A stretch of 63,877 bases of DNA, counting the filler, from Pseudogymnoascus verrucosus (lineage: Eukaryota), in NCBI GenBank assembly GCA_001662655.1. It is 7 parts of 7 records of this genome, joined end to end, with 100 filler letters (N's around TTAATTAATTAA, not from the genome) between each part and the next. Parts side by side here need not be neighbours in the genome. Positions count along the whole stretch, not along the records: positions 10,901 to 20,908 come from KV460310.1; 6 more parts are not named here. One strand, 5' to 3'. Under the pieces are notes generated by a model that was not told the DNA's origin, searched no databases, and worked only from the letters and a program-made list of their open reading frames with translations. Both the position numbers and the translations under genes were made by a program. Positions 1-62,477 of this stretch are shown here, piece by piece; positions within the stretch are counted from its first letter, which is position 1; the number at the start of each line of letters is the position of its first letter.

Positions 1-513
1 ATTAATGACGAAGTATTAATTTGCACTCCACAGAGTAGGATTGTAGAAGGTTTTAATCCAAGGTAGCAGTGGAAATGGCGCTGTTAATATAGCTAGCAGC
101 CCTAGAATCTACCTAAATAGCGCCCACATACACATCCGATGTGGAGAATCCGGGGTAAACTACCCCACGGGGAGCCAATGGAGAATCTGTTGATGCACGT
201 GTCTGTACGCATATGGTTTGGTGCAAGGCTGCCCTCCGGCCCTAACAAGCCACACCGGTGGCCGGTGGCCGGTGGCCGGTCTTTTCCCCTGCTGGCGCTC
301 CGGTGCATTTCCCACTCGTCGCCGAGTGAGCAGCCGCGCACAAACCAATGGAGAGGCTGCGTCAGCAAGATGAACGTATATAAACTCGCATTCAGGTGCA
401 TTGGCTCTACTAAACAGTCTACAGATCTCTTTGCTGTCGGTTTTCTCTAATTCATTATTATCTAATGGTACAACGGGCACACTATATCATCTTGCATCCA
501 TTCAGACTTCATC

Positions 514-7789: not shown

Positions 7790-9069
7790 CTACAAGCATT
7801 GTGAATACCAGTCATTACCGTAAGTGCACACAAACGGCGNNCAGTAGTAGTGGATGCCGGATTGGAGGTAGAAGTGGGCTTCTGGCTGGTTGGAGCGGCG
7901 GTCGACGAAGATGGCGGTACGGACCCACCGCTTTCTGAGAACGTAGAGCCGATATCTCCCCACCTGATGTTCGAGAAGGTGACATAAGTTCCTGGTGTTT
8001 GTTGCTGGATGTTCGTCGGGTTTCCTTCCGAGCTGCTGCATGGGCCGGAGCTGCCGCTGTCCAGCCAGCTCATGTGCTGTCCGGCGTCATTCCAAATGCT
8101 GAAGATTAGTACCATGCCGCGACCCAGTGCCTGACCCATGGTGGTCAGTCCACCGAGCCTGGCGGCAGCGGCATCGGACGATGAGCACCATGCAGCCTTG
8201 ATAGAGTCCATGCCAGACGAGGTTACGGCATTCTGGATCACCTTGCCATTCTGGATGTAGAGGCGACGGATCTCGGTGAGGGTGCCGGTCTGAGTGTTGT
8301 CATTTGTGTAGAACTGCGTGATCACAGTGATGGGCTTGAGGGTATCGACAGTGCCGCCGTTGCCATAGTAGTTGTGGAGACCCTGGGCATAGGGGTTGAA
8401 ACCGCAGCCGGAGCTGTCACAGCTATTACCCTGGCATGGATGCGGCGTCAGCGCCGTAGCGTTGGCATTGGCTTCCCAGATATCCNNNNNNNNNNNNNNN
8501 NNNNNNNNNNNNNNNNNNNNNNNNNNNNNNNNNNNNNNNNNNNNNNNNNNNNNNNNNNNNNNNNNNNNNNNNNNNNNNNNNNNNNNNNNCTCTCCGCAGA
8601 CGAGAGTTGAGGCGTCAACATCGAATCTCAGCTCCTGTCCAAGGAGATGGAGCATCTCGTAGTTGCCATCGGAGCCGAGGAGATAGATTCGCGGGGAGGC
8701 ATTGGTGGTAACTCCGTTGTTCTGGACATATTGTTTAAGCGTTACAGCATTTCCAGATGTGGTTACGCCACTGCCAGCGTAGTTGGCACCTTCGATAGCA
8801 CAGTTCGCTGCGCATGTGACCTCATTGGGGCACAATGTGGCATCTACACCGCTGGAGGTCGTGCATGACGTCTGGCTGTTAACCTTATGGATCGGGTGGT
8901 AACCCCAGTCCAGAACGATAGAGGTGTCCTGCTGGACACAGCCACCACCTGTGGTGCATTTCCAAGTCGGCAGCTTGGGATGAACTTCTGGTGTTTGAGT
9001 GCCAATTTGCTGGGCTGCGACTAGGGGAAGAATGGCAGCCAATGCTGTGAAAACAAGCTTTTGTGCCAT
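7790..9069 (-). CDS. Secreted GH7 endoglucanase (Cel7B/EGI-type) with Ser/Thr linker and C-terminal CBM1; partly in N gaps
   Basis: Signal peptide, then [19 protein letters not shown], catalytic-region [15 protein letters not shown] and [12 protein letters not shown]. The CBM1 tail [12 protein letters not shown] lies in another frame after the small gap at 7840. Confidence 0.93.
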
Positions 9070-10641
9070 GGCTGGAGCACTGTGGCTAAGAAAATGACGA
9101 GAAAGCAGAGTGAGTATGACGAGAGAAACCCGTTACGAACCCATCGCGACACTATGAGATATTTATACACAAGCATACTGTATACCGTAACGCAGAAGAG
9201 GAGAATAGTGCTCTTTCAAACATGTCCAGGCGACCTCTTTTCTGTCTCCAGTTAAGCAATGACAAGGGTATTAAAGCCTTGTTGACCCACATCATAAGCT
9301 TGTAGTTACAGGAGATAGTGGCTGGTGTCCATCGGCCCGTCGGTCCCCGGCAGATTTGCCCAGGAACAGCGGGGTTGTCGAAATTGCTTGTGTTCACTAG
9401 GGCAAAAGGCTGATATTAATTTGAATTACCCAGGTTGGAGAACGGTATACCCCTCTTCTTTGAGGGTATTCTTCTTGCCCTGCCTCGAACCCCTGGCTAG
9501 TTCTCTGGGTATTATCGTTTGTGGCGAGCGGGAACTCTTCTAGAACAAGCCATCATACGCCTTCGAGCCCGCGGACGACGATTTTACACGGCAAAGGCTT
9601 TCTCAACTGCCGTGATCGCCTCAGTCTCTCGGTTCTCTCCGCATTCGAAGCGGCCACATTAATCTCCCACGTCACTATTGCCCATATCGGTGGCCAAACC
9701 TTCTCTTTCCATCAGCATTTCCCGAGAGCCTGTCCTTAAAATGCTTCGTGATGATGTCTGTATCCCGTAGCCAAGGAATATAATTCACCTGGATCACGGG
9801 CATAGTTAAAGCAAGTATCGAGTAATCGTCGTGACCAACTTTTCGCTTCGCTCAAGGTTGGGGTAAGCAAAGTCAGCAGTTGGAAGCAATAGTCAATTGG
9901 AGTGATTCCTGGTGAACTACTCATATTAATCATATTATAGTATATTCCTAACCTATACCAATCAGGCAATGTCATCTCCTAGAATGCAAAATATTCCTCC
10001 GAGCTTTCCGCCCTGATTGCAAGAGATGGGTGCAGTGAGCCGTCATTCACATAATTACAAACAATGAACATGCCTTATTTGTAATCTAAATTGCTAATAA
10101 TGTCTACAAATTTAGAATAGTCTTGCTACATATAGCTGAAATCTCCCTGTTTAAATCACAGCACTGCTTTAATAACTTAGCTAGATAATTATCAACCTCC
10201 TCTACACTTAGCGCGAAAGATCCATACCTCATAACGGTTAGCCTAGCTTAGTAGTTAGAGCTAGAGTCTAATTTAGCATATTCTAGAGGCAGATAGTCTT
10301 GTCTAGAGGTAGATTTTGTTGTTAATTGTTACTATATACTACTAAGTTTCCCCTAGTTTCTATAAACCCTTATCCTCTCTTCCTTAAACTAATCTTTATT
10401 AACCTATATTATAATGTACATTACTATTCAAAAATTAGTTAGTAGGATTTTAACTATCTAAGGCTTTTCTAACTTTTTGTTTGTTATTTCTAGGCTATAC
10501 TCTATAGTTTTGTTTATTTTGTTTAGTTTTAATAGTAATTTTCTTTTATAATATCTCTATTAGTTAATATTTAACTAGCATTATATAAATTAGCTATATA
10601 GCTTATAAGGCTATATAAGAGCCTTGCCTTGTAACGCTAGG

Positions 10642-10770: not shown

Positions 10771-10900
10771 TTTCCTTCTATACCTGAAACCCCTCTAACT
10801 NNNNNNNNNNNNNNNNNNNNNNNNNNNNNNNNNNNNNNNNNNNNTTAATTAATTAANNNNNNNNNNNNNNNNNNNNNNNNNNNNNNNNNNNNNNNNNNNN

Positions 10901-11346
10901 GAGTGTTTTGAATACTCCTACAAAGCAATATATCAATAAGTTAGCAGATGAGTTAGAACGCCTTAATACACGCAACACCCTTTAGAAAAGAGAGTGTAAT
11001 AACTTACGTTCAATTATTCAGAAGCGTAGGGCATAGAATAAGGGTAAAAGAGCTGTTTTAAAGGGTTAATTCCACATTTCAACAGAAGAACTCCAGTCGC
11101 AAGTTATAGAAGCAGAAGCAGCAACAGCAACAGCTTCACAGAGGCCTAGAACAACACCACGACCTATAAACGAGGCTATAATTGAGGAAATAGATGAAGA
11201 GAGCGAAGAAGAGCCTTCTGAGGATGATATAGATGAATTAGGGTGGTAGTAATTAAATTATTACGATTTTTTGAAGCTTTTAATAGGGTGGTCCTAACCC
11301 CACTACCGACATTACGCCATTACCGACATTACGCCACGACCTACGT
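10901..11346 (+). mobile_element. pogo/Fot1-like transposon 3' end, TIR core CGTAATGTCGGT
   Basis: RIP-damaged C-terminal transposase sequence (..DIDELGW*) followed by a TIR ending GACCTACGT|TA. Confidence 0.85.
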
Positions 11347-11355
11347 TAACCATTA

Positions 11356-11826
11356 ACGTAGGTTATGGCTATACCGGGACTATGGCCATACCGGGAATCC
11401 GGCAACCACCACTAAATAAAGAGTCACGTGACCTAAATGAAAACTGTAATAACTTTTACAATAGTGCCTATAAAGCTTAATCCTCTTATGTTCTTACTCT
11501 TTATCTACATATATACTATAGCTAAATGTTTTAGAGTGTAAGCTAGCCTTAGAAAGGAGTTATTTATAGTTTAAGTTTTGCCATATAAATATTTTGTATA
11601 GTAAAAGTTTAAACCTTAATATCTCTTATAAAACACAACTAGTACTACTAATGTTTTCATATATATTAGATAACTATATAAATATCGTTAATATAAGAGG
11701 GCTAGGCTATACATCTACTAATTAAAAAGTTATTAAGGTTTTCATTTTAGTCACGTGACCCTCTATTTGGTGGTGGTTGCCGGATTCCCGGTATGGCCAT
11801 AGTCCCGGTATGGCCATGACCTACGT
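11356..11826. mobile_element. MITE, 471 bp, TIR core CCATACCGGGA
   Basis: TIRs at both ends and TA TSD. It is inserted immediately upstream of the ATG of a minus-strand element whose 5' TIR (core CCAGACCTGCT) lies at ~11888-11926. Confidence 0.9.
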
Positions 11827-11926
11827 TATAGTAGTGTTGGTGGTTGTAGTTAGGGGTTTGGTGGATTAGTCCTAGATTTTGGTGGGGTAGCAGGTCTGGC
11901 CATGTAGCAGGTCTGGCCATGACCTA

Positions 11927-12882
11927 ACGTAGGTCGTGGCGTAACGGGTGTAATGGCGTAACGGGGGTATGTACCTTTACAGCTAAACTTGTAACGTAGG
12001 TCATGGCCTAAAGGGCTACATGGCCTAAAGGGCTATTCTAGAAACCACACCAAAATCCACGCTACGTGACTAAAATTAAAACCTTAATAACTTCTGTAAT
12101 AATGGTTATAAATCTTAATGCTCTTAGACTATTACTCTTTATATAATCATCTAATATATGTAAAAACGCTAGTAGCGCTAGTCTTATTTTACAATAAATA
12201 TTAAGGTTTTAACTTTTACTATATAAAATATTTATATAGTAAAACTTAAACTATAAATAACTCTTTAATAAGACTAGCTTACATTATTACAAATTAAACC
12301 CTAATATATGCATATATAAAGAGTAATAATATAAGAGGATTAAGCTTTATAACAGTTAATTAAAAAGTTATTAAGGTTTTAATTTTAGTCACGTGACGTG
12401 GATTTTGGTGTGGTTTCTAGAATAGCCCTTTAGGCCATGTAGCCCTTTAGGCCATGACCTACGTTAAGCAATAGTACTTAGAACCAAAAACTTCAAACCT
12501 AAATAACTCTATGAATAAAATTAGTAAAGCTTATTCCTTGTATATATTAGAACTGTATATAATACTCTTTTATATAAAAAAACGCTAATAGCACTATAAT
12601 TGTTTTGCATAAGTTATTAAAGGTCTAAGATTTTACCATACAAAATATTAGTATGGTAAATCTATAATTGTTAATAACTTCCTTATATAACTAGCTTACA
12701 GGCTGAAATTTCTATGTCGAATATATGTATATATGAAGTTTTTATATACAAAAGTATTATACTTTACATCACCTACTTAAGTAGTTATTAAAGGTTTTAA
12801 TTCTAGTCACGTGATATAAATTCGCTAGCAAAATACCACTACCCCCGTTACGCCATTACACCCGTTACGCCACGACCTACGT
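11927..12882. mobile_element. MITE, TIR core CGTAACGGG, with a nested MITE
   Basis: Matching TIRs ACGTAGGTCGTGGCGTAACGGGTGTAATGGCGTAACGGGGG at both ends, TA flanks. Confidence 0.88.
11994..12464. mobile_element. MITE, 471 bp, TIR core CCTAAAGGGCT (nested)
   Basis: Matching TIRs, long subterminal inverted repeats, TA TSD. Confidence 0.9.
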
Positions 12883-13123
12883 TAGGGTAATTTAAACTTA
12901 TTAATAGGATATAAATAATAGCACTAGTAGTACTAGCGTTTTTAAATGAAGTAAACACCTATATATAGAACCTAAGTTTTAAATAGTTAAGGTGTATGAT
13001 TTTTATTAGCAGAGATTTTTAGATTTTTAGTTTTATAAACATAAGTACCTTTACATACAAATTTGGCTGTAAAGGTACATTAGGCCCATTACGCCATTAG
13101 ACCCATTACGCCATGACTTACGT
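12883..13123. mobile_element. Truncated MITE, TIR core CGTAATGGG(T/C)CT
   Basis: Half of the common MITE body plus a single TIR ending GACTTACGT|TA. Confidence 0.75.
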
Positions 13124-13990
13124 TATGTGTTCTAAGTTATTATGTATGTTTGTTGTTTCTTTGTTTACATGTAATAGTGTTATTATGTATATTACTACTC
13201 TAACGCATACGTAATAATAGTGTTACATGTAAACAAACAACAAACAATAAACAAACAACAAATTCACGTGATAACTTAGAGCACGGTAGGAACAACAAAC
13301 TACGTAATAACCTAGAGCATAGGTGTAGAAGATATAGCTCATGTGATAACTTAGGACACAGGTAGAATAGTACACTAGTAGGTTTATATGAAAGGGTTTT
13401 CCTTTAACGTAAGTCGTGGCGTAACCGGGCTAATGGCGTAACCGGGCTATGTACCTTTGCAGCAGAATTTATATATGAAGGTACTTAAATCTACAAACTT
13501 TAAACTTAAATAACTCTATTAATAAAATTATTAGAACTTATTCCTTATAGACTATTACTCTTTATATACTAATATACTATAGTTAAATTTTGAAGAACGT
13601 AAGCTAGCCTTATTAAAGAGTTATTTATAGTTTAAGTTTTGCTATACTAATATTTTGTATAGTAAAAGTTTAAACCTTAATATCTCTTAGAAAACAAATC
13701 TAGCACTACTAGCGTTTTTATGCATATTAGATTAGCATATAAAGAATAATAGTCTAAGAGGATTAAGGTTTATAATCACTATTATAAAAGTTATTAGGGT
13801 TTTAAATCTAGTTACGTGTCCTTCGATTTGGTGGGGTGAGTAGGTAGCCCGGTTACGCCATTAGCCCGGTTACGCCACGACTTACGTTATACGAACGTAG
13901 AATTAAACGTTTAGAAAGTTTTTTTCTAAGACTTAAACCTATAATAAAGCCAACAAAGTCTAATAAAAGCACATTTATTATCATAAAAAT
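13124..13990 (-). repeat. Unclassified AT-rich dispersed repeat (family Y); hosts MITE insertions
   Basis: Reverse complement of GTTGGCTTTAT..TTAAGTCTTAG..TTTCTAAA..AAACCTACTAG plus GTTCTA(A/G)GTTAT sub-repeats. Related sequence lies at ~22122-22460, 38330-39500, 40346-41300, 58130-58241 and 61447-61890. Confidence 0.6.
13407..13887. mobile_element. MITE, 481 bp, TIR core CGTAACCGGGCT
   Basis: Matching TIRs and TA TSD. A near-identical inverted copy lies at 22587-23067. Confidence 0.9.
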
Positions 13991-14091
13991 GGGCATGTAA
14001 AAGCTAGACGGTTCCTTAAATATCGTAAATTAAAAAAGGATTATAAGTCTAAGTTATCTTAAAAGAAGAGTAACTACAAGGATAATAAGAA

Positions 14092-14512
14092 CGGTTAATG
14101 ACTAAATTGCCACCTAAAATATCAAAAAGGACTGAATTACCACCTAACTGTTTTAAAATGACCAAATTGCCACCCTATAAATTTACAACTTAACTTAACT
14201 TATCTATAATAGTACTCTACACTTTAACTTAAAACATAACTTAGTTACTAGTATCACTACTTACTTATAACTATTAATTAAGCATATATAACACTATAAA
14301 GGCTTTGTAATAAGCATACTATGTTTTAGTCATGTAACATACTACTTTATATAAGCATAATTTATTACTAGAGTTAAGGGTAAGCTACAGATTATTTTAG
14401 AGCTAACTTATGTTCTATATTAAGAGTAGATATAGATAATAGCTAAGTTAAATTGTAGAGTACTATTATAGGTAAGTTAACTTAAGTTGTACATTTATAG
14501 GGTGGCAATTTA
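14092..14512. mobile_element. Non-autonomous Mutator-like (MULE) element, left part; remainder at 19508-19580
   Basis: Long (~130 bp) TIRs with three GAC(T/C)(G/A)AATT(G/A)CCACC sub-repeats. The 9-bp TSD TAATAAGAA is at 14083-14091 and, reverse-complemented, at 19499-19507. Confidence 0.8.
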
Positions 14513-15021
14513 ACGTAGGTCGTGGCGTAATCGGGAGTATGGCGTAATCGGGAGGAGGTACCTTTATAGCAAACTTAGTATGAAAAGGTACTTAATTTTT
14601 AAAAAATTAATTAATTTATAATGCCTTTAATAAAAATATTAGGGCTTATCCCTTTTATATATAGGAAGTGTATAAGGCTACCTAATGTATACGAAAACAC
14701 TAGTAGCGCTAGCGTCTTTCTACACAAGTTATTTAAGTTTTAAAGTTTTGCTATATAAAATTTTAGTATAGTAAGTCTAAAACTGCTAATAACTTTATAA
14801 GCACACTAGCTTACATACTAGCGTTATTAATTATTAATGTATATGTGTATGAAGATCATAAGCATAAAAGGACTAAGCCTTAAAATGCCAATTACAGAAG
14901 TTATTAAGAGTTAAAGAGTAGATCATGTAATCCTTAGTTTTGCTGTGGCAGTCGGTTTGATGGGGTCGCTTACCCCACTATCCCGATTACGCCATCCTCC
15001 CGATTACGCCACGACCTACGT
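14513..15021. mobile_element. MITE, 509 bp, TIR core CGTAATCGGGA; left breakpoint of the inversion
   Basis: Matching TIRs and TA flanks. An inverted copy of the same length is at 19581-20089. Confidence 0.9.
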
Positions 15022-15048
15022 TAGTCCCGGTATGGCCATGACCTACGT

Positions 15049-15360
15049 TAGAGTATAGAATAAGGGTAAGAGAGTAGTTTTAAAGGGTTAATTCCACATT
15101 TCTACAGAAGAACTCCAGTTGCAAGTTATAGAAGCAGAAGCAGCAACAGCCACAGCTTTACAGAGGCCTAGAACAACACCACAACCTATAAACAAAGCTA
15201 TAATTAAGGAAATAGATGAAGAGAGCGAAGAAGAGCCTTCTAAGGATAATATAGATGAATTAGGGTGGTAGTAATTGAATTATTTGCAATTTTCTAAGTT
15301 AGTAGTTTTATAGTTTAGTTCTAGATTTTAGTAGGGTTTGGCAATTAAGTTAGTATAGCC
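15049..15360 (+). mobile_element. pogo/Fot1-like transposase 3' fragment with a degenerate end
   Basis: NKGKR..LKG..FHISTEEL..DELGW* homology, RIP-damaged. Confidence 0.75.
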
Positions 15361-15490
15361 ACAACATATGTTAGTAATTCTATAATAACTGTTATTTTAA
15401 TACCTTAAAAAAAGCAAATCTTATAGAACTAATACTTATAAAGTAGGTATATATATATATATATAAGATAAATAAAAAATAGCTTCTTTA

Positions 15491-15556
15491 TAAAGGATAA
15501 GATATAACTAGTTAAAGGATAAGATATAACTAGCTAAAGGATAAGATATAACTAGT
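15491..15556 (+). repeat. Tandem repeat, 3 x 22 bp (TAAAGGATAAGATATAACTAG(T/C))
   Basis: Directly visible. It may be the terminal or subterminal repeat array of the adjacent pogo relic. Confidence 0.85.
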
Positions 15557-15699
15557 TATCTAAGGTAGCTTATAACATTTATCTAACTTTAATAAGGTCT
15601 ATAGTAATGTTCCTTATTCTACCCTCTATTAATTATTATGCTTATAGACAACCCTTAATAAAAGAGAAGGCTTAAGGCTAATAGTACCTCTAGCTATAG

Positions 15700-16270
15700 G
15701 TAGAGGATGTCATTATTAACTTTATGTTATAAATGTACAATCTAGGACAACTAATATAAATTAAGTTTATCCCTTCCTTAGCCTTTAGCATTACTTACTA
15801 GCAACCTAAGGTAGATAGGCTTAAACCTCCTAGGAAGAATTAGACTAAGGCTTTAGAGAAGTGACATCTAAGACTCTAAGTAAGAAGAGTTAGCCCGTTG
15901 GACTAGAACTGCTATAAGAAAAATATATAGGAAGGTCATACACTAGTTTAAGGTAATTAGAAAGATACTATAAGACCCTGCTATTTTAGTAGAGAATGTC
16001 TATAATATAGACGAAACTAGGGTAATGTTATCTATGCCTAGCTCTGTTAAAGTCCTTGTAGGTAAGTAAGGATGACAGACGAAACTATCGAGGCGCGTAT
16101 GTTAAACGAACAACAGCAACAGCAATAGAATGCATTAGTGCTAATGGTATGTATATTGACCCTATGATTATTTAGCCAGCTAGTACGTATCGAAGCAACT
16201 AGACCACGTTCCCTCCCCCCGGATACCGATTCTAAAATCAGCTTCGAGTGGCTGAAGCGTATATTTAATC
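15700..16270 (+). pseudogene. RIP-destroyed transposase of a second pogo/Fot1 family
   Basis: IKFIPSLAFS..KPPRKN*TKALEK*H..LD*N, ENVYNIDET, VKRTTATAIECISA and DPMII*PAST motifs, with many TAA/TAG stops. Confidence 0.8.
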
Positions 16271-16648
16271 CACTCCCGGATTTCGGCGTGTGGGGAAGAG
16301 ATACAGGGATGAATCGTAGGAGAGGCTAAGCTTTCGGGAAACGTGGAGAAGCTAACCTTCGGTTATTAAATTTCACGTCCTGTGACAGGCGGTGACCTGA
16401 TCCCTGTCCCTACGCCTCTAGACCCAACACACACGTCGCTGCCTTGCGCGCGTCTCTACTGCCCCAACCCAAATCGCTCTCATTTAGTTTTACTCTCCTA
16501 CTAGAGGAATGAATATCTCAACCCCGGTGAAATAGCGTTCTCTAAGCTAACCTAATCATTCTCGCCAGAGGTGTTGTCCTGGGCCAGCCTCGTCGCTACC
16601 TACATCAGGCCAATAGCCCCGCCTTGGCCCAGAACGTCCGTACGAGCC

Positions 16649-19267
16649 ATGAGCTTTGGATTCGGGGTTGGTGATTTTCTCGCCGTCATACACAGTCTCA
16701 AGCGCATCTCCGAGGAGGTACAGGGTTATAGGGATGCGCCGCAGCACTTCCAGCAGCTTAACGCTGAGCTCAGACTTTTGGAGAGTACGCTTCAATGTGT
16801 GCTTCAGATCCAGACAACAGATGTCAATGAGCTTGCTGGCCTTGAGCGGATAAGGCTGATTGTAATGCATTGCCAGCAGCCCTTGCAGGCCTTCATTAAC
16901 AAGATAAGGTCGAAGGAATCTAGCTTAGGCCATTTTAGGAGTGCAGGGACGATTAGTGCTGTCGGGGAAAGGCTTCACTGGAGTTTGATTAGGAGGAAGG
17001 ATGTAGAAGATCTAAGGAAAGTGATTGTTTCAGAGATGGTGGCTATTAATATTTTGTTAGGCTTGCAGCAACTGTAAGTTGGTCTGGGCACTGACAGTAA
17101 GATTGGATGCACTAAGACTTTCCTAGAACGTATCTGAGGACGCTCGAAAAGGATGAATTGGTATTTAGAAGCGATGCTCGACAGCATTTCGCTGCTTCTA
17201 AAGCACTTCTTACCAATACCATCGATATCTTGAGCAGTGTTGAGACACTACCACATGAGATCCGGCATCTACGAGGGTCTTTCGCTAGTCATGCTTCAAA
17301 AAATAACAAGTTTCAGGGAAAGATTACAGAAGGTGTTAGCACCATTACTGTAAATACGGAATTGATTATATCTCAGGGTAAGAAAGCTCTCGAGAGTGCG
17401 CACAGCATCGGAAACCAGGCTGCTAAGATCATGGCTACAATTTCATCCCTTATGGCGAACGTACATAGACTGATGAAGCTGTAAGTTGGGTTTTATTTTT
17501 TATTTTTTACTGCTAATATACCGACAGACTTGGGGAGTTTTCGAAAGAAGTTCTCGGCCAGATTGCAAAAAACACGTGAGCAACAATCGCCGTTTACACT
17601 CCCTTTCTGTCAGACCTAATCATTTATTTACAGACAAATGCTCTTGGATATTCATGCGAAAATAAAGCAGATCCTTCGTGCCATTGATGCGATCCCTCTA
17701 CATCTCACCCTTGATATCGTGAGATTTGATGACGCACTTGGTGAGAGTTGGGCACTGCCATTCCAAGCCTGCAGGGAATGGGAGGTAAGTCATATCTTAT
17801 CCTAAACTCAGCCAGCTATAATACCTTCTCATATAAACAGAGATTATCTAGGCATTGGTAAATCTTAGTTGCTAACGGTGATTAGACATTCAAAGACATT
17901 TTACAAACGGTAGTCTTTAGAAACAATCGGATAGGATCCAATCGAGTTGCATTAGGACAGTTCATGATCATATCCGCGAGAGATAACTCAGTCTTCCAAT
18001 CATATACATGGAAATCTAACATCAAACCTGGTGCACATATCTCTCAGTCAATGGTCGTCTCGAAGCAAACCATAGGAGACCGTTGTCAGTTCCCGTCGTG
18101 TAACGAGCCCTTGACCGATTTACGCAAATCAGAACGCGGCTATAGTTGGTATGTTTATACCTACTAAACACGGTATTAAGAAGCTGGGATAATAATTGCA
18201 GGGAGATTAGTAAAAAATGTGGCCGCTGGTCTGTTATATACGGACGAACTACAAATCTGCTGCAACTCGCTGCATCTGGGGACACAAACTACCCTCTTCT
18301 GATCGGGGAAGATCAAACACCTCGGGCACCTAATATTAAAGGCCCCTCCCTACCCCCAGTGCAAACTCTCCAAGAAGATTTTAGCTCTTTTCGAAGAATC
18401 CATGTCTACCATGCTATGAGCCCCATTGCGACTCTCGAGGAAGCGCATGCACTTCTGGATGAGGATCCAGAGAGCGCAAGGGCCCTTCAATTCATTGCTT
18501 GGTTCAATTACCCTCACAGGGACAATATTGCAGAGGAGCCGCGCAAGGTAGATCGTCTGAGGTCTACTATTGATTTACTAGAAAGATCAATTAGGTCAGG
18601 TAAGTTGTTCCTTAATTTGCGATTAAATATTTCAAGATACTAAAAGCAAAATCAGATCCCCTTGACAGCCAGACCTGGTATCTCCTTGGGAGAGCATTTA
18701 TGGACATCGGCCAAGTGGAGAAGGCCTACGAGAATTACCAGCAGGCTATCTACAGGGAAGGTGCATTTCCAGGATATTGGCATTCCGTCGGAGTGCTATA
18801 CTACGTGATAAACCAATTTCTAGACAGTTTTGATGCATTTACACGGAGTGTGAGACTTAACCCTTACATCCCGGAAGCATGGTATTGCCTGGGCGTCTTG
18901 GTATGTGATAAGAAGCGTAAGCCTTCAGAGAACAATAGCTTATAATTGCCCCTTATAGTATGAATCAGCCGAAAACCAGCCCAACGACGCTGCTGAAGGC
19001 TACGAACGGTATCTAAAGCTCTCACAAACCCCGGATGCCACCACTACGGCTCGACATAAGCACCTGCTCCAGGTAGCCGCGAGTGAGGCCAACTCCAGCA
19101 AGGTACCGCCGCTACCAATGAGGGATGTCGACCTTCGGGGGAAATCGCACCAGCAGCAGAGTGCAGAACATTACGAGAACATTCGGATTCCAGGATTGGC
19201 TATACGAGATGCGGTCGATAGTGAGGGAGATTGGAGCGATACAGATCTAGATGAAGATGATAATTGA
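16649..19267 (+). CDS. Multi-exon protein: fungal HeLo-like/STAND-type N-terminal domain, ubiquitin-like domain, Cys4 zinc-ribbon-like motif and Ssn6/Cyc8-like TPR repeats
   Basis: Starts MSFGFGVGDFLAV (typical of fungal NLR N-termini). Contains the ULD-type motif VRFDDALGESWALPFQACREWE, CQFPSC..C..C, and TPRs DSQTWYLLGRAFM..AYENYQQAIYREG..YWHSVGVLYYVINQFLDSFDAFTRSVRLNPYIPEAWYCLGVLYE. About seven GT-AG introns (e.g. 17074-17126, 18901-18958); stop TGA at 19265-19267. Confidence 0.8.
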
Positions 19268-19507
19268 GCTCATGGTGATGGTAGGAAGAGATCTCATAGT
19301 AATTCAATGTAAAATGTAATCAGGCAGAGTACACAGCTAGAAGTGTTCCTGAAATAGACAGGTAGAAAACCACCGACGCCTAATTCGCCTTTTACTGTAT
19401 AGGACGAGATAATCCATGTTTATATTAGCATCATCCCCCCCCAAACTGGCTAGAGAGGAATTAAGGCAGTTAGCCATAATACTTTAGAGGCTTCTATTTT
19501 CTTATTA

Positions 19508-19580
19508 CGGTTAATGACTGAATTGCCACCTAAAATATTAAAAAGGACTGAATTGCCACCTAACTGTTTTAAAATGACTA
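19508..19580. mobile_element. Displaced, inverted right TIR end of the MULE-like element at 14092
   Basis: Its reverse complement continues exactly from GGTGGCAATT|TA at 14512 and ends at the matching 9-bp TSD. Confidence 0.82.
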
Positions 19581-20089
19581 ACGTAGGTCGTGGCGTAATC
19601 GGGAGGATGGCGTAATCGGGATAGTAGGGTAAGCGACCCCATCAAACTGACTGCCACAGCAAAACTAAGGATTACATGATCTACTCTTTAACTCTTAATA
19701 ACTTCTATAATTAGCATTTTAATGCTTAGCCCTTTTATGCTTATGATCTTCATACACATATACATTAATAATTAATAACGCTAGTATGTAAGCTAGTGTG
19801 CTTATAAAGTTATTAGCAGTTTTAGACTTACTATACTAAAATTTTATATAGCAAAACTTTAAAACTTAAATAACTTGTGTAGAAAGACGCTAGCGCTACT
19901 AGTGTTTTCGTATACATTAGGTAGCCTTATACACTTCCTATATATAAAAGGGATAAGCCCTAATATTTTTATTAAAGGCATTATAAATTAATTAAATTTT
20001 TAAAAATTAAGTACCTTTTCATACTAAGTTTGCTGTAAAGGTACCTCCTCCCGATTACGCCATACTCCCGATTACGCCACGACCTACGT
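19581..20089. mobile_element. MITE, 509 bp, TIR core CGTAATCGGGA; right breakpoint of the inversion
   Basis: Near-identical inverted copy of 14513-15021. Confidence 0.9.
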
Positions 20090-20510
20090 TATGGCCATAC
20101 CGGGAATCCGGCAACCACCACCAAATAGAGGGTCACGTGACTAAAATGAAAACCTTAATAACTTTTTAATTAGTAGATGTATAGCCTAGCCCTCTTATAT
20201 TAACGATATTTATATAGTTATCTAATATATATGAAAACATTAGTAGTACTAGTTGTGTTTTATAAGAGATATTAAGGTTTAAACTTTTACTATACAAAAT
20301 ATTTATATAGCAAAACTTAAACTATAAATAACTCCTTTCTAAGGCTAGCTTACACTCTAAAACATTTAGCTATAGTATATATGTAGATAAAGAGTAAGAA
20401 CATAAGAGGATTAAGCTTTATAGGCACTATTGTAAAAGTTATTACAGTTTTCATTTAGGTCACGTGACTCTTTATTTAGTGGTGGTTGCCGGATTCCCGG
20501 TATGGCCATA
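20090..20510. mobile_element. MITE, TIR core CCATACCGGGA, with both TIRs interrupted
   Basis: The outer 27 bp of its left TIR are displaced to 15022-15048 (inverted). The right TIR is interrupted at TA 20509-20510 by another MITE. Confidence 0.85.
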
Positions 20511-20908
20511 ACGTAGGTCATGGCCTAAAGGGCTACATGGCCTAAAGGGCTATTCTAGAAACCACACCAAAATCCACGTCATGTGACTAAAATTAAAACC
20601 TTAATAACTTCTGTAATAATGGTTATAAATCTTAATGCTCTTAGACTATTACTCTTTATATAATCATCTAATATATGTAAAAACGCTAGTAGCGCTAGTC
20701 TTATTTTACAATAAATATTAAGGCTTTAACTTTTACTATATAAAATATTTATATAGTAAAACTTAAACTATAAATAACTCTTTAATAAGACTAGCTTACA
20801 TTATTACAAATTAAACCCTAATGTATGCATATATAAAGAGTAATAATATAAGAGGATTAAGCTTTATAACAGTTAATTAAAAAGTTATTAAGGTTTTAAT
20901 TTTAGTCA
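20511..20908. mobile_element. MITE, TIR core CCTAAAGGGCT, running into a gap
   Basis: Near-identical to 11994-12464. Confidence 0.88.
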
Positions 20909-21008
20909 NNNNNNNNNNNNNNNNNNNNNNNNNNNNNNNNNNNNNNNNNNNNTTAATTAATTAANNNNNNNNNNNNNNNNNNNNNNNNNNNNNNNNNNNN
21001 NNNNNNNN

Positions 21009-21770
21009 GCTAAAACGTGTTTTTGAGCCCTCTATAAGAGCAAAAGCAACACAAAATGGACGACTACAGCAACGGCTCCTAATTTGCGATGGCCATGATA
21101 GCCATATAAGTGGAAGCTTTATATCACACTGTATACAGAATCGAATATCACTCCTTATTCTACCTCCTCATACATCTTATGTTCTACAGCCACTTAATGT
21201 TGCAATTTTTGGGCCCTTAAAGCAACACCTTACAACTGCTCTCTCACACCTAAATGAGGTGCAACTCCTACGAATACAGAAAGCAGAGTGGCTTGAAGCA
21301 TATATAAAAGCAAGAGCAGCTGCTTTTTCAACTTCAAATATCAATTCTGCTTGGAGAGGGAGTGGCCTACAGCCATTCCAACCACAAACAGTCATTCGAG
21401 CAGCTACACTTCCTACTACAGACGTAGTAGTATTAGAACGGCCACATACTCCTACAGAGCATGATATTTTTGAGAAGGTATTCTTAAACAGTAGTCCACC
21501 TGATTTTAATACCCTTCAAAAAGCGAATTCTGTGCTCTCTACAGCCTTAAATCAAGGTGTTTTGAATACTCCTACAAAGCGATATATCAATAAGTTAGCA
21601 GATGAGTCAGAACGCCTTAATACACGCAATACCCTTCAAAAAAGAGAGTGTAATAACTTACGTTCAATTATCCAAAAGCGAAGAACACAGAATAAGGGTA
21701 AAAGAGCAGTTTTGAAGGGTCAATTCCACATCTCAACAGAGGAGTTACGGTCGCAAGTTATAGAAGCAGA

Positions 21771-21806
<36 letters not shown>

Positions 21807-22029
21807 TTCACAGAGGCATAGAACAACACCACAACCTACCTCAATGGTTAACTTAACTAATAGTGAGAGTGAAGAAGAGAGCGAGGAGAGCGAAGATAAT
21901 GATATAGATGAATTAGGGTGGTAGTAATTGAATTATTTGCAATTTTTGAAGGTGGTAGTAGTTTGATGGGGTGGTTCTAACCCCACTATGCCGGTTACGC
22001 CATTGTGCCGGTTACGCCACGACTTACGT
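21009..22029 (+). mobile_element. pogo/Fot1-like transposon 3' half, TIR core CGTAACCGGCA
   Basis: LLICDGHDSH..LPPHTS.VLQPL motifs, ORF 21259-21924, TIR ending GACTTACGT|TA. Confidence 0.9.
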
Positions 22030-26760: not shown

Positions 26761-28761
26761 ACGTAGGTCATGGCCTAAGTGCTGCCATGGTCTAAGTGAC
26801 AATTTTAGATACCCTACTAAAATCTAGGACTAAACTACCTACCTACTAATTTAGAAAATTGAAAATAAGTTAATAATTACAATGCTAATTCATCTAAATC
26901 GCTGTCATATAGCTCTTCTTCACTCTCTTCATCTATTTCCTCAGTTATAGCCTCGTTTATAGGTTGTGGTGTTGTTCTAGGCCTCTGTGAAGCTGCGGCT
27001 GTTGCTGTTGCTGCCTCTGCTTCTATAACTTGCGACCGGAGTTCTTCTGTAGAAATGTGGAATTGACCCTTCAAAACTGCTCTTTTACCCTTATTCTGTG
27101 TTCTTCGCTTTTGGATAATTGAACGTAAGTTATTACACTCTCTCTTTTAAAGGATATTGCGTGTATTAAGGCGTTCTGACTCATCTGCTAACTTATGAAT
27201 ATATCGCTTTGTAGGAGTATTCAAAACACCCTGACTTATTGTAGAAGAGAGTATAGAATTCGCTTTTTGGAGTGTATTAAAATCAGGTGGACTGCTGTTT
27301 AAGAATACCTTCTCAAAAATGTCATGCTCTGTAGGAGTATGTAGCCGTTCTAATACTACGACGTCTGTAGTAGGAAGCGTAGCTGCTCGAATGACTGTCT
27401 GCGGCTGGAATGGCTGTAGCCCACTCCCTCTCCAAGCAGAAGTTATATTTGAAGTCGAAAATCCAGCTTCTCTTGCTTTAATATATGCCTCCATCCATTC
27501 TAACTTATGTATGCGTAGGAGTTGTGCCTCATTAAGGTGCGAAAGAGCTGTTGTAAGGTGTTGCTTTAAAGGTCCAAAAATTGCAACATCAAGTGGCTGT
27601 AGAACATGAGATGTATGAGGAGGTAGAATAAGGAGCGATATTCGATTCTGTATGCAGTGTGATATAAAGCTTCTACTTATATGGCTATCATGGCCATTGC
27701 AAATTAGGAGCCGTTGCTGTAGTCGTCCATTTTGTGTTGCTTTTGCTCTTGTAGAAGGCTCAAAAACGCGTTTTAGCCACTCTAATCTATGAAGATTACT
27801 TGTCCATCCCTTTGTATTTACAGAGAAGTGCCATTTTTGTATAACCTCCTTTGGAATCCAGCTCTGTAGTATGTTCTGTCCTTTAAAAATAATAAGGGGG
27901 TCGATAGCTGTTCTGTCTATGCAAATGCATTCAACAGCAGACACCCATTCCTGTCGGCTAGGATGAGCTTGAAATCGCGTACGGAGTGTAGAATCGACTA
28001 TAATTCGTGTAGATTGCATAGTTCCAATTGAAAATCCAGTTTCATCCATATTATAAGTGTTGTAGTTTTCGATTTTTAGCTCTGTTATAAGGCTCTTGTA
28101 CGCGTCAAACCACCCCCTTAACACCTGCTTTGTGACCCCATTCATCCTTTGTGCCTCAACTCTACGTCCTAACTTAACACGTAAGTTAGGATGCCTTTGA
28201 ATGAATCGTGGAACCCACTCTTGCCCAAGAGGTAAGTTAGGTATTTGAGGTTGAGGTTGTTGAGGTTGTTGAGGTTGTTGAGGTTGTTGTGTTTGTTGTT
28301 GCTGTTGTTGTAGTTGAGGCTGAAAAACGCGACACTTATTTGACTGGACTTCATCTGCAACCTCTCGTAATATCCGATGGCTAGGAGCGTAGCCGCTTGT
28401 AGTAAGCTCCTTAATCCACTTTAAGAGCGTTTGCTCTTGATTTTTTGACAGGAGCTGTTGTTGTTGTCGCGCCTCACGTCGCGTAGAGCCACCTCTTAGA
28501 CGCTTAAGGACAGTATTAGGGTGTAGGCCTAGAGCAATTGCTGCAGCATTTGCTGATTTAAATTTTCCTAACCTAACTCCTTCAATTGCCTTAGAAACAC
28601 GTAAATCAAGCTCTTGAGCCTTAATATTCTTACGTTTTACCATTTTTAACTATATAGTAGAAGTAGTAACTACTAGTCGGCTGGTTTGATGGGGTCACTA
28701 CTACCACTACCCCGCTAAATTGTCACTTAGACCATGGCAGCACTTAGGCCATGACCTACGT
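26761..28761 (-). mobile_element. Full-length (2001 bp) pogo/Fot1-like transposon, TIR core CCTAAGTG
   Basis: Matching TIRs at both ends, TA TSD, transposase at 28643-26877. Confidence 0.95.
26877..28643 (-). pseudogene. DD35D transposase inactivated by RIP-type changes
   Basis: CAA>TAA stop at 27147-27149. The second catalytic Asp is changed (LLICNGHDSH versus LLICDGHDSH in other copies). Confidence 0.88.
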
Positions 28762-30212: not shown

Positions 30213-30968
30213 TATAGCAACAGCTCCTAATTTGCGATAGCTACAATAGCCATATAAGTGGAAGCTTTATATCACACTACATTCAAAATCGAATATCGCT
30301 CCTTATAATACCTCCTTATACATCTCATGTTCTACAGCCACTTAATATTTCGATTTTTAGGCCCTTAAAGCAACACCTTACAACTGCTCTCTCACACCTA
30401 AATGAGGCACAACTCCTACGAATACAAAAAGCAGAGTGGCTAGAAGCATATATTACTGTAAGAGAAGCTGCTTTTTCAAATGTAAATATTAATTCTGTAT
30501 GGAGAGGGAGTGGCCTACAGCCATTTCAACCACAAACAGTCATTCGAGCAGCTACACTTCCTACTACAGACGTAGTAGTATTAGAACGGCCACATACTCC
30601 TACAGAGCATAATATTTTTAAGAAGGTATTCTTAAACAGTAGTCCACCTGATTTTAATACCCTTCAAAAAGCGAATTCTGTGCTCTCTACAGCCTTAAAT
30701 CAAGGTGTTTTAAATACTCCTACAAAGCGATATATCAACAAGTTAGCAGATGAGTCAGAACGCCTTAATACACGCAATACCCTTCAAAAAAGAGAGAGTG
30801 ATAACTTACGCTCAATTATTCAGAAGCGTAGAGTACAGAATAAGGGTAAAAGAGCAGTTTTAAAGGGTNNNNNNNNNNNNNNNNNNNNNNNNNNNNNNNN
30901 NNNNNNNNNNNNTTAATTAATTAANNNNNNNNNNNNNNNNNNNNNNNNNNNNNNNNNNNNNNNNNNNN

Positions 30969-31164: not shown

Positions 31165-32243
31165 TAGAGGATGCCCGAATATTTACTATTTTGTATCTCA
31201 ATATTCACAGGTCCTGTGATGTTGCGTCATCGCAATGAATCATATTGTAAGCAGCACCTTGGCTGATAAATCCATTAGGTCTCCTGCTGCCGACATGTCA
31301 TTCGTCTCATAGTCGCAGTTGATTCGGCTCACAGTGGGGTCCTGCCAAATCGATCGCCCGGGAGGTGCCGGAGAGTTGCAGCCCACATAACGGGATATCC
31401 GCATGCCAATCAATTTGACCGCCTTTGGAGGTCCCTCATTGCCAACTACTGAGGTTCATTAATGGCTTTTGCTCAATTTTCACTGATATATGATCCGGTG
31501 TATCTACCTGCATCGCCGCAAAATGTAACTGAGTTACACATTCGATACCGCTTAGTAAAGCCGATCAGCCATTGGCAGAATCAGCGAATGAATTCACGTG
31601 CCGTGAACGACCCCGCCATCTTGTCATCCCGCACATGGCTCTATTGCTGTCAGATTATACTGTAGTCGGGATCAGATTATAATCGTTAATCGCGCCTGTT
31701 TGTCTCAAGATACGCGAGATCTACATCCGCTGCCATGTGTTCCCAAGAACTGAAAATCGTTGACAAATGAAGCCTTACTAGAGACCTCATTGATGACATT
31801 CCTCACTATATAATACTTCCACATGTGGAGGAAGGAGGTCACCTTCCGAGATGCAAAGAGGACGTGTTATGAATAATCCATGACACTAGTCTACAGTTGC
31901 TCGTGGCCGGCACAGCCGAATACCACGAGATGTGGATCAAATCCCCAGGCAGTTAATTATATTTGACTCAGCAAGCTTACAGCGACTGATTGGTGAAGTA
32001 GCCGCTCTCAACTAAATTAGGCTAAGTGCGTATGGCAATCATACAGGTACGGCTGAACCCAACCTCATCATCATCGTACAACGCGCACTCAGCAAAAGCA
32101 GTATGAGCAGTGCAGGCAGCACTACTGTACACTCCCAGCGTCTAGTTCTCAAGGTAGGTCACAGCCTCCTCCAACTGGAGGCTCAGCCAGAAGACTGAAG
32201 ATATTTAGTACACGATCCATTTATCAGGCTCCTTGCAACAGTA

Positions 32244-35200
32244 ATGGCGGCGATCGGGCTTACTGCAAGCATTATCGCAGTTATTGACTTATCTGCAAAG
32301 GTTGCTTCACAGTGCTCTGAGTACTACGCCAAGGTCAAGAATGCTAGAGACGACATTGAACGCCTTCAGGAGGAGATTAGACAATTAAAAGAAATCCTCG
32401 GGCAAGCTCAGTCGCTATGTGATGGTGCAAATGGTGCAAAACTCCAGTCATCCCAAAATTTACGCGATGGGGTGAAGGAGTCCAAGAAGCAGCTCGCCCA
32501 GCTAGAGACAAAGTTGAAGCCTCGAAAATATGAATTGATGAGTCGGTTCGGGAGGCACGCCTTAGCGTGGCCCTTTAAGAGTCATGAGGTGGAGGACACT
32601 ATGAAGAAACTAGGGAAATGCAAGGATAGCGTATCTTTCAGTCTCCAATTCGACCAAATGTACGTAATATTATGTATATTCAAACGGAGCGGAGTTGACA
32701 TTAGTGCCTATAGAGTACAAGTTCTTAGCATCCATCAAGAAATTGTTCTTGACAGACTACAGTCTGCCGACGACGCCGCGTTCGACTCCCACGCCGAAGA
32801 GCATAATGCTAGATGCTATAAAGGCACTCGAGTTCAACTTATTCAACAGATAAATACGTGGGCAAGTGACCCTAGCAGTGAATCTATATACTGGCTGAGT
32901 GGTATGGCTGGCACTGGCAAGTCGACAATCTCCCGCACTATGGCCCAGAATTTTGCTAAAGATGGAGAGCTCGGCGCTAGCTTCTTCTTTAAGAGAGGTG
33001 AAGGCAGCCGTAATCATGCAGGATTGTTCTTTTCGACAATTGCTGCACAGCTTGTCCAGAAACTACCTTCGTTAGCTCCACATATCCGACATGCAATTGA
33101 AGCTGACCCAGCTATCTCTAACAAGGCTCTAAAGCAACAGTTTGAGACGCTAGTCATACAACCCTTTAGCAAGATACGTCTTGATCCTCAGAAATCGTTA
33201 AGCATAGTGATAGTTGTTGATGCCCTTGACGAGTGCAACCGAGAAGAGGACCTTTGCGTTATAATTCATCTCCTCCAACAAGTGCAGCAGATAACATCGG
33301 TACGCCTTAAGTTCTTTTTGACAAGCAGGCCAGAGCTACCAATTCGCCTCGGCTTTGAGGACATAAGTGGCAGATATAAGTGTTTGGTTCTGCATGAGGT
33401 CCCCAACCCTATTATCGAGCATGACATCTCTGCCTTCCTTGAATATGAGCTAGCAAGAATTCGGGATGAGTACAACAAATCAGTTATTCTAGACCGCCAA
33501 CTGCCTACAGATTGGCCAGGACAAGCAAATGTCCAAAGTCTAGTCCAAATGGCTATCCCATTGTTCATTTTTGCTGCAACAATCTGCTTGTTTGTTAAGG
33601 ATCGTAGATGCGGCGAGCCTGGGGAACAACTTACGAAAGTTTTGAAATATAAGACTAAAAGCCAGGAATCTGCGCTTGACGCAACGTATCTCCCAGTCCT
33701 TGACCAGTTGCTTGTTGGGCTTACTAACTCACAAAAAGACGAACTAGTTAAAAATTTTGAGGAAGTCGTTGGCTCGATCGTGATTCTCGCCAGCCCTCTA
33801 TCTACTGTTTCTCTTGCTCGACTACTTGATATCTCCAATGCAAGAGTCAATCACATTTTAGACCTCCTCCACTCAGTTTTGAGTATCCCTTCTAATCCAG
33901 ATATACCAGTACGACTACTCCACCTTTCATTCCGTGACTTCCTCCTCGACAGTGAGAAGCGCGAGGAGCATCCATTCTGGATTAATGAACAGAAGTGCCA
34001 CCAGAGATTGGCGACACAATGCCTTCAAACTTTATCGAAGGGACTAAAAAATGATATTTGCAATCTTCAAGTGCCAGAGAGGCTACAGGCAGATGTTGAT
34101 AGGCAAACGATAAATGCAAAAATTCCACTAGATATCCAATATGCTTGTCAGTATTGGGTGTACCACCTAAAGGAAGGTAGAAACATCATATCCGACGACG
34201 ACCAAGTCTACAAATTTCTCCAACGCCACTTCCTCCATTGGCTTGAAGCATTGAGCTTTATTCAGAGGTTACCAGAAGCCATTGGCATGATTAATGACCT
34301 AATAGCTATATTAAGGGTATGTTACTTACTAATATCAAGTACGACGTTTTACTAAATAAATATCATTTAGCCAACAGAAAGCATTGAACTGTCTGCACTT
34401 CTTTATGACGCAAGGCGGTTTATTCTTAGTCACCTCTCAATAGCTGAGCTGTCACCCCTCCAGCTCTATTCTGCTGCACTTATCTTCTCCCCAAAGGACA
34501 GTGTTATTCGAAATATGTTCCAAGGTTATATACCAAATTGGATATCACAGCAGCCAGTAGTAGAACCAGGTTGGAATGCCACGCTTCAGACGCACGAAGG
34601 CCATGGCAGCAATGTCAACTCAGTGGCCTTTTCGCACGACTCGAAGCTACTAGCGTCAGCGTCGGGCCAGACGTCGGCGTTAGAGTCTAGGCTCTTAAGC
34701 GACAACACTGTCAAGATCTGGAATGCGACCACTGGCACACTGCAGCAGACGCTCGAGGGCCATAGCAACTCAGTCCGCTCAGTGGCCTTCTCGCACAACT
34801 CGAAGCTGCTAGCATCAGCGTCGTACGACAAGACTGTTAGAATCTGGGACACAGCTACTGGCACGCTACAGCAGACACTAAAGGGCCATAGTAGCGGAGT
34901 TACTACAGTGGTCTTCTCGCACAACTCAAGGCTGCTAGCATCAGCGTCATTTGACAAGATTGTTAGAATATGGGATGCAGCTACTAGCATGCTACACCAG
35001 ACACTCGAGGGCCATAGCAGCGTGGTTACCTCAGTGGTCTTCTCGCACGACTCGAAGCTGCTAGCATCAGCGTCAGGTGACAATACTATTAGGATCTGGG
35101 ACGCAGCCACTGGAACGCTGCACCAGGCGCTCAAGGGCCATAGCGCCTCGGTCAACTCAGTGGCCTTCACGCACGACTCGAAGCTGCTAGCATCGGCGTC

Positions 35201-40201: not shown

Positions 40202-40301
40202 NNNNNNNNNNNNNNNNNNNNNNNNNNNNNNNNNNNNNNNNNNNNTTAATTAATTAANNNNNNNNNNNNNNNNNNNNNNNNNNNNNNNNNNNNNNNNNNN
40301 N

Positions 40302-49415: not shown

Positions 49416-49515
49416 NNNNNNNNNNNNNNNNNNNNNNNNNNNNNNNNNNNNNNNNNNNNTTAATTAATTAANNNNNNNNNNNNNNNNNNNNNNNNNNNNN
49501 NNNNNNNNNNNNNNN

Positions 49516-62473: not shown

Positions 62474-62477
62474 TACA

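Follow-up and report, generated by a model that had tools for sequence, protein, structure and literature searches.

Ssn6, also called Cyc8, is described as an array of ten tetratricopeptide repeats (TPRs), of which TPR1–3 are necessary and sufficient for Tup1 binding and TPR4–10, in combinations, bind the DNA-binding repressors by which the complex is recruited (PMC5650148). The protein is also known as the 'glucose repression mediator protein', a name that appears in the title of PMC4669128. Here, we analysed a 63,877-nt stretch of joined genomic pieces from Pseudogymnoascus verrucosus (assembly GCA_001662655.1), the whole of which is referred to as the window. Within it, a predicted gene at 16649–19267 joins a putative HeLo-like/SesA-type helical bundle and a ubiquitin-like domain (ULD) to a TPR block that sequence comparison identifies as a relative of the C-terminal half of the Ssn6 array.

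Fungal HeLo-like and SesA domains have been studied mainly as the N-termini of NOD-like receptors (NLRs; NOD, nucleotide-binding oligomerisation domain) or as amyloid-triggered executioners. In the literature on fungal NLRs, the Pfam family PF17111 goes by the name 'HeLo-like', and the SesA family overlaps with it (PMC9815663; PMC12258605). HeLo, HeLo-like and SesA domains are classed with the four-helix bundle of MLKL as membrane-targeting death domains (PMC9815663; PMC12881547). In MLKL a regulatory domain is described as holding this bundle in check, and in HET-S/HELL proteins membrane targeting and cytotoxicity depend on the extreme N-terminal helix (PMC12881547). Putative integrated decoys, a concept from plant NLRs, are described in the NLRs of Sordariales as PKinase domains resembling CHK-2 (PMC12258605). 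The Arabidopsis TPR protein SRFR1, with a TPR domain similar to that of Ssn6, is described as an adaptor of effector-triggered immunity (PMC8233967). Among the matches listed from open-access text, no paper connected Ssn6/Cyc8 with domains of the HeLo type.

With Ssn6/Cyc8, the window protein shares a colinear run from helix B of TPR6 through TPR10 and the helix that follows; it differs in having neither TPR1–5 nor the long low-complexity C-terminus seen in the Ssn6-like protein P0024, and in adding the helical bundle and the ULD. Its likeness to the HeLo-like/SesA domains of NLRs lies in the extreme N-terminal position, the all-helical bundle of the model and the fact that these are the only Pfam families matched, whereas the scores fall below the cut-offs and the protein has no NACHT or NB-ARC domain. 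No amyloid motif as in HET-S/HELLP was noticed, and no search was aimed at such motifs. As in MLKL, a bundle is joined to a regulatory domain other than a NOD, but neither MLKL nor HET-S stood out in the fold searches. The ULD is shared with the fungal ULD_2 (PF22893) proteins, given the above-threshold match in both the window gene and the homologues P0001–P0003. SRFR1 is a plant protein without a HeLo-like or ULD part and serves as an analogy only, likened by description and not by sequence comparison. The resemblance to integrated decoys is one of logic: part of a conserved host regulator, copied and still highly similar to its source, is fused to an immune-type domain, and its duplication from the host regulator is documented by the comparisons below. 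Integrated decoys, however, sit on complete NLRs with a nucleotide-binding domain, whereas the window protein has no such domain and the captured piece is its sole repeat or sensor module. A fusion of a HeLo-like–ULD protein with a captured Ssn6 fragment as the only repeat module is apparently undescribed.

Gene model and domain order

The gene extends on the plus strand from an ATG at 16649 to a TGA ending at 19267, intact within the piece covering 10901–20908, and the peptide strings quoted for it in the initial annotation were all recovered in its open reading frames (ORFs). The model was built by joining the plus-strand stop-to-stop ORFs (16556–19267) at canonical GT..AG sites; splicing was inferred from the DNA and the exon model is a predicted one. 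The predicted product has 730 aa encoded by eight exons, with GT..AG introns throughout (53, 47, 58, 101, 53, 56 and 58 nt in order) and a frame that is open across all exons.

16649..17073, plus strand: exon 1, residues 1–141 plus 2 nt; N-terminal helical bundle, HeLo-like/SesA type (sub-threshold)
17127..17480, plus strand: exon 2, residues 142–259; between the bundle and the ULD, without family match
17528..17575, plus strand: exon 3, micro-exon of 48 nt and 16 aa, LGEFSKEVLGQIAKNT
17634..17784, plus strand: exon 4; the ubiquitin-like domain begins (ULD_2 from ~17710)
17886..18148, plus strand: exon 5; remaining ULD_2 (~17889–18062), then the conserved C-x4-C
18202..18599, plus strand: exon 6; third Cys in KCGRW, disordered linker, FRRIH motif, equivalents of TPR6 helix B and TPR7
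18656..18900, plus strand: exon 7; equivalents of Ssn6 TPR8, TPR9 and TPR10 helix A
18959..19267, plus strand: exon 8; TPR10 helix B, post-TPR helix (to ~19033), tail with conserved motifs, acidic end, TGA

A seven-exon model of 714 aa was dropped, as its 153-nt intron was three times the length of the other introns and contained the 48-nt micro-exon. The cysteine, BLASTP, column, tree and groove analyses use the 714-aa numbering, to which 16 is added after residue 259 to obtain the 730-aa numbering; situated upstream of the ULD, the micro-exon leaves the Ssn6, cysteine, tree and groove analyses unaffected.

Three metagenome loci (L001, L002 and L003) presented the same order of parts and the same intron places as the window gene, at 45–61% identity. 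L002 spans the N-terminus through the TPR7 equivalent (61% and 56% identity), L001 the end of the ULD through the C-terminal tail (55% and 49%) and L003 the linker through the tail (45%). Compared with L002, the micro-exon shared 41 of its 48 nt and, in translation, 13 of 16 aa, and it preserved the reading frame. Its bounding ACAG acceptor and GTGAG donor were conserved, whereas the intron DNA on either side was poorly conserved. Exon 2, for which no Pfam match was found below E 0.1, was likewise kept in L002, inside an N-terminal alignment of 59–61% identity.

Domain signals also ran across the exon junctions. The ULD_2 profile was continuous over one of them (positions 3–27, then 29–84), and the alignment with Ssn6 was free of gaps over both junctions of the TPR block ('...LLERSIRS/DPLDSQTWY...' and '...CLGVL/YESAENQ...', with the slash at the junction). 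Of the two introns concerned, the first follows the TPR7 equivalent in phase 1 and the second lies within TPR10, behind 'GVL', in phase 0. A soil-metagenome contig spanning 16400–19470 was ~93% identical to the window, with 197 letters differing and 27 gap letters. Its gaps were located upstream of the ATG, in the introns at 18600–18655 (+4) and 18901–18958 (+1) and downstream of the stop, or were compensated, the compensated gap being a −1/+1 pair 6 bases apart in the last exon of one of two contigs. Contigs of run X3 read through the introns and therefore behave as DNA; no splice joints were seen in the contigs of four runs. On these sequence grounds, we conclude that the locus is one intact fungal gene.

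The initial annotation had described a captured Ssn6 fragment placed behind an NLR-type N-terminal domain with no NOD between them, and this architecture is well supported by the sequence.

Relationship of the TPR block to Ssn6

The TPRs proposed earlier are real, as exon 7 gave TPR_1/TPR_2 matches of ~40 bits. A search profile was derived from exon 7 (18656–18900) of the window gene together with its counterparts in L001 and L003, and it retrieved 46 proteins among 478 candidates. The best 40 of the 46 were 54–61% identical to the window exon over 98–100% of its length; six of these were named 'glucose repression mediator protein' (five from Malassezia, one from Gonapodya), and 34 were unnamed or generically named. 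Identity fell to 32% at the next TPR protein after the top 40 and was 22–31% for bacterial TPR proteins, and members of the family itself shared 58% in this exon. As a single query, exon 7 found only four candidates in a word-indexed protein search, none of them significant, no relative among metagenome contigs and only generic TPR clusters in the Atlas. Against the PDB it matched OGT and, at ~37 bits per repeat pair, designed consensus TPRs; none of the 50 matches was a chain named Ssn6 or Cyc8.

The main BLASTP match of the spliced protein fell on repeats 6–10 of the Ssn6-like proteins (P0024 residues 191–402, 41% over 223 aa, E 9e-42), whereas repeats 2–4 of the same proteins reached only ~25% identity. 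The likeness was graded along the block, with 54–61% identity in TPR8–10, 39–50% over TPR6–10 and 21–31% in TPR6–7. Shared signatures included DSQTWYLLGR, YQQA[IV]YR, RLNPYIPE.WY.LG.LYES and DA.DAY.R, and exon 8 aligned to the Ssn6 segment 'YESCNNQISDA.DAY.R.LEL'. A weaker colinear match reached back to Ssn6 'PPKPLTE.DIWFQIGHV', whose counterpart in the window is 'LPPVQTLQEDFSSFRRIHV'. The AlphaFold2 (AF2) model of exon 6 showed confident helices for helix B of TPR6 and for TPR7, and none for the equivalent of TPR6 helix A. The BLASTP match and the gap-free alignment thus bear out the earlier claim of colinearity between this block and the last TPRs of Ssn6 with the segment behind them.

Conserved positions gave a similar gradient. 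There were 62 columns at least 90% conserved in TPR8–10 of the 40 Ssn6-like proteins, of which the window protein keeps 47, L001 38 and L003 47, compared with 14–25 in six unrelated TPR proteins. Exon 7 alone keeps 38 of 50 Ssn6-conserved columns, and TPR6–7 of the window protein 10 of 30. Among the putative groove positions of TPR8–10, 10 of 15 agree with the Ssn6 consensus (four in TPR8, two in TPR9 and four in TPR10), in a register taken from general TPR knowledge and not from a solved Ssn6 structure.

A maximum-likelihood (ML) tree was calculated from 43 rows and 182 columns, leaving out the short rows P0055, P0057–P0060 and P0065 and containing no ascomycete Ssn6. The window protein, L001 and L003 formed one clade of their own (100/100) on a long stem (length 1.92), which sets them apart from Ssn6 itself, and this family grouped with the Ssn6-like proteins to the exclusion of five other TPR proteins (96/96), as the initial annotation had expected.

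Position-specific identity and conserved columns exceed those of other TPR proteins and the tree groups the family with Ssn6, so that the sequence comparison identifies the block as paralogous to the C-terminal half of the TPRs in Ssn6; it comprises TPR6 helix B to TPR10 and the post-TPR helix. The protein is predicted not to be an Ssn6/Cyc8 orthologue because TPR1–5 are absent; the upstream region holds the ULD and the helical bundle instead.

The tail behind the block (19100–19264) contains PLPM[RK]D[VI]DLRG, EDIRIP... and an acidic end, SEGDWSDTD[LF]DED, all conserved with L001; the first of these motifs also occurs in L003. One Malassezia Ssn6 has 'PSIPAPRDVN' at the aligned position.

N-terminal helical domain

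The N-terminus had been read as NLR-type from strings such as MSFGFGVGDFLAV...ERLHWSL. These lie in exon 1, and the two families that this exon matched are of the expected kind, but the matches are weak and sub-threshold. PF17111 (PigL_N, formerly Helo_like_N) was matched at E 1.4e-5 and 25.0 bits against a Pfam cut-off of 27.2, and SesA (PF17107) at E 0.005 and 17.4 bits against 26.3. The L002 orthologue scored 22.1 bits for PF17111 and 20.3 bits for SesA, again below both cut-offs, and in the window gene and L002 alike no other Pfam family was matched by exon 1. The Pfam scan was performed exon by exon, and these scores come from exon 1 alone, so that a longer match is possible.

The AF2 model of exon 1 is a five-helix bundle with a predicted local distance difference test score (pLDDT) of 69 and a predicted TM-score (pTM) of 0.60, obtained from an input of only two sequences. 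Exon 1 gave 0 matches to PDB sequences at E ≤ 10. Its nearest Atlas clusters were ascomycete, with a minority of members carrying PF17111 (10–14%) or SesA (11–21%). We infer that the bundle at the N-terminus serves as an output domain of the HeLo-like/SesA type.

Ubiquitin-like domain, cysteine stretch, linker and absence of a NOD

The ULD-like segment noted earlier is genuine. ULD_2 (PF22893) scored 30.2 and 37.4 bits on two consecutive exons, both above the cut-off of 24.5, with profile positions 3–27 (exon 4) and 29–84 (exon 5) of 85 covered, which places the segment in the family. ULD_2 was also above threshold in the homologues P0001–P0003. No description of the role of PF22893/ULD_2 was found among the open-access literature matches listed.

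Following the ULD, cysteines at 377, 382 and 404 (714-aa numbering) form a C-x4-C-x21-C triad, encoded at 18051–18068 (CQFPSC) and 18215–18229 (KCGRW) on either side of an intron. The Cys4 motif of the initial annotation was rejected, as there are three cysteines and no His nearby (none in 370–420), where a zinc-binding Cys4 motif would have four ligands. CQFPSCNE is conserved in P0001–P0008 and the homologues keep all three cysteines. Some homologues have a His six residues past the third Cys, where the window protein has a Tyr. P0001 showed a weak match to the Rtr1/RPAP2 zinc finger (E 0.0037, below cut-off), and the stretch is therefore possibly a degenerate zinc knuckle.

The ULD and the TPRs are separated by a linker of ~60 residues predicted to be unstructured; in the AF2 model of exon 6, residues 1–77 had no regular structure and helices followed at 78–87, 92–102 and 116–131 with pLDDT above 90. 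No Walker A pattern ([AG]xxxxGK[ST]) occurred in the spliced protein, and no NACHT, NB-ARC or AAA match was obtained at E ≤ 1 on any exon, in agreement with the earlier reading that a P-loop and NOD are absent. A true NACHT-WD40 gene elsewhere in the window was readily detected. Because it has no NOD, the protein is not an NLR/STAND (signal transduction ATPases with numerous domains) receptor.

Conservation and distribution of the family

Exon 1 is the best-conserved part of the protein, being 81% identical to L002. Exon 6, which carries the linker and TPR6–7, matched 17 proteins among 1.84 billion representatives at 27–88% identity. All 17 are fragments of 67–246 aa that end by intron read-through at one common place, and no full-length annotated protein was among them. 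Judging by these matches, the family is found across a range of environmental fungi; as the matches to the linker exon are all short fragments, it seems to be absent as a whole annotated gene from that protein library. The fusion is conserved in other fungi, and the homologous sequences therefore point to an old functional gene and not a recent accident. A paralogue search of the window found no second copy of the gene in it.

Genomic surroundings

The window consists of pieces of ~10 kb with N44-TTAATTAATTAA-N44 joins at 10801–10900, 20909–21008, 30869–30968, 40202–40301, 49416–49515 and 58387–58486. As these joins are artificial, distances and neighbourhoods across them are meaningless. On its own piece the gene has AT-rich flanks (GC ~0.27–0.31), and both are full of units of ~440–640 nt resembling miniature inverted-repeat transposable elements (MITEs), with 43-nt terminal inverted repeats (TIRs) starting TAACGTAGGTCGTGGCGTAA. 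No ORF of at least 70 aa was found in 10901–16000. The main features around the gene and on the other pieces are as follows.

14511..15026: MITE-like element, left copy; 516 nt, 98% complementary to 19576–20091, with its own 43-nt TIRs
19576..20091: MITE-like element, right copy; the other half of the inverted 516-nt pair that brackets the gene
32199–36377, plus strand: NACHT-WD40 gene, a canonical fungal NLR (NPHP3_N 7.6e-33, WD40 8.4e-122)
21010–21924, 27147–28649, 30218–30868, 59454–61322 and 62451–63875: copies or fragments of pogo/Tc5-type transposases (DDE_1 with HTH_Tnp_Tc5)
466–3156, plus strand: GH2 beta-mannosidase-like gene, interrupted by N runs
7843–9132, minus strand: GH7 cellobiohydrolase-like gene, interrupted by N runs

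A second inverted MITE-like pair of 421 nt, 100% complementary, was located at 11381–11801 and 20090–20510. Some of the pogo/Tc5-type frames are 475–500 aa long and may be intact. The GH2 and GH7 genes fit a plant-biomass-degrading filamentous fungus, and further pieces of the window carry HRI1 and an M14 peptidase.

The TE-rich (transposable element-rich) location given in the initial annotation thus holds for the gene's own piece, where MITE-like elements are dense, and is weak as evidence. The canonical NLR that had been placed ~13 kb away lies on another piece, two artificial joins off. With the NLR on a different piece, the argument from proximity was rejected. Its first ~215 residues gave no Pfam match at E ≤ 1e-4 and were not similar to exon 1, where the best E was 1.3.

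Proposed origin and mechanism, and the alternatives

The gene probably arose from an old duplication of part of SSN6 that became joined to a HeLo-like–ULD gene. After the fusion, TPR8–10 would have changed little more than in Ssn6 itself and TPR6–7 would have drifted. Because TPR1–3 are absent, the protein is predicted to be incapable of serving as a Tup1-recruiting co-repressor, and it is this inability that favours the Ssn6 fragment as bait or sensor. By analogy with MLKL, our tentative reading, to which we give a probability of roughly one in three (0.35), is that the protein may be a NOD-less two-part switch. The TPR8–10 module would keep much of the partner-binding surface of Ssn6 and would therefore bind either a DNA-binding repressor that is a normal client of this part of Ssn6 or a foreign factor directed against Ssn6. 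The N-terminal bundle, the presumed output, would change its state on binding and, like HeLo/HELL domains, would most plausibly act by targeting the membrane and causing cell death. Regulatory or assembly roles may fall to the ULD and the acidic tail; that the acidic C-terminus docks into the protein's own TPR groove is speculation. A more specific form of this switch is unlikely: a guard of the Ssn6–Tup1 hub, working as an integrated decoy that mimics the client-binding TPR8–10 surface and releases the bundle to kill the cell. The trigger would be contact of that surface with an allelic incompatibility partner or with a factor from a mycovirus, bacterium or mycoparasite.

Several observations weigh against the switch. 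Both N-terminal Pfam matches fall short of the curated cut-offs, and the fold check proposed earlier predicted a helical bundle but retrieved only generic ones: Foldseek with the exon 1 model gave a best E of 0.27 and VIA-align a best Z of 10.2, where ~13 is needed for helical bundles, and the rows listed in these searches included neither MLKL nor HET-S. In the tree, which was made without ascomycete Ssn6, the family's position within the Ssn6 group is a polytomy. Of the five groove positions in TPR9, three deviate from Ssn6, and the strong conservation of TPR8–10 may reflect the stability of the fold and not a common ligand. The family also looks old and conserved (45–61% between members, 81% at the N-terminus), which departs from the fast evolution usually expected of immune sensors.

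The age and conservation of the family, which is not hypervariable, would suit a transcription-related regulator without any role in cell death, in which TPR7–10 titrate or relocate the repressors that Ssn6 uses, as an anti-repressor or dominant-negative paralogue, and in which the bundle and ULD serve localisation, turnover or assembly. The 47 of 62 Ssn6-conserved columns kept in TPR8–10 and the loss of TPR1–5 agree with such a role, given that client binding is assigned to TPR4–10 and Tup1 binding to TPR1–3 (PMC5650148), and the sub-threshold N-terminal matches leave a death function tentative. We nevertheless regard this regulator as doubtful, considering that the only N-terminal family signals are those of NLR-type effector domains, that no nuclear-targeting or DNA-related domain was matched in Pfam on any exon and, as a weak point, that the gene lies in a transposon-dense stretch. 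About equally questionable is the reuse of the TPRs as a mere scaffold, whose ligand after capture would be unrelated to Ssn6 biology, as in STAND-type repeats, with the similarity left by structural constraint. Exon 7 is indeed a well-packed canonical TPR near the designed consensus, TPR6–7 have drifted and TPR9 differs in its groove, and TPRs are among the canonical repeat types of fungal NLRs (PMC12258605). Its identity to Ssn6 (54–61%), however, equals that between family members (58%) and is far above the 32% or less of other TPR proteins, so that a constraint on the fold alone hardly explains it, and the post-TPR helix is kept as well.

It is very improbable that two neighbouring genes, a HeLo-like–ULD gene and a truncated SSN6 pseudogene, were read as one, or that the contig is chimeric. 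In favour of this, the linker of ~60 residues between ULD and TPRs is predicted to be disordered, but a single exon unites the conserved KCGRW, the linker and the TPR6–7 helices, and it recurs in the 17 fragments and the three loci. Moreover, the frame stays open through eight exons with canonical introns, L002 and L001 present the same order of parts in another fungus, and an independent metagenome contig covers the whole gene with indels that are non-coding or compensated. Two runs contain 98–100% of the gene's words, though these are possibly the source of this DNA.

Implications

In this family, a putative HeLo-like/SesA-type domain is connected directly, without an intervening NOD, to a recognisable part of a core transcriptional regulator. 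Should the TPR block of the proposed switch bind the clients or the attackers of Ssn6, the protein would be a simple case of target mimicry in the control of fungal cell death and would pinpoint an important surface of Ssn6. If it is a modulator of repression instead, it would be a natural dominant-negative fragment of Ssn6. Either way, the family appears to be absent from annotated proteomes. Should the guard of the Ssn6–Tup1 hub prove true, it would represent an integrated decoy without an NLR scaffold and would mark Ssn6 as a target of fungal antagonists.

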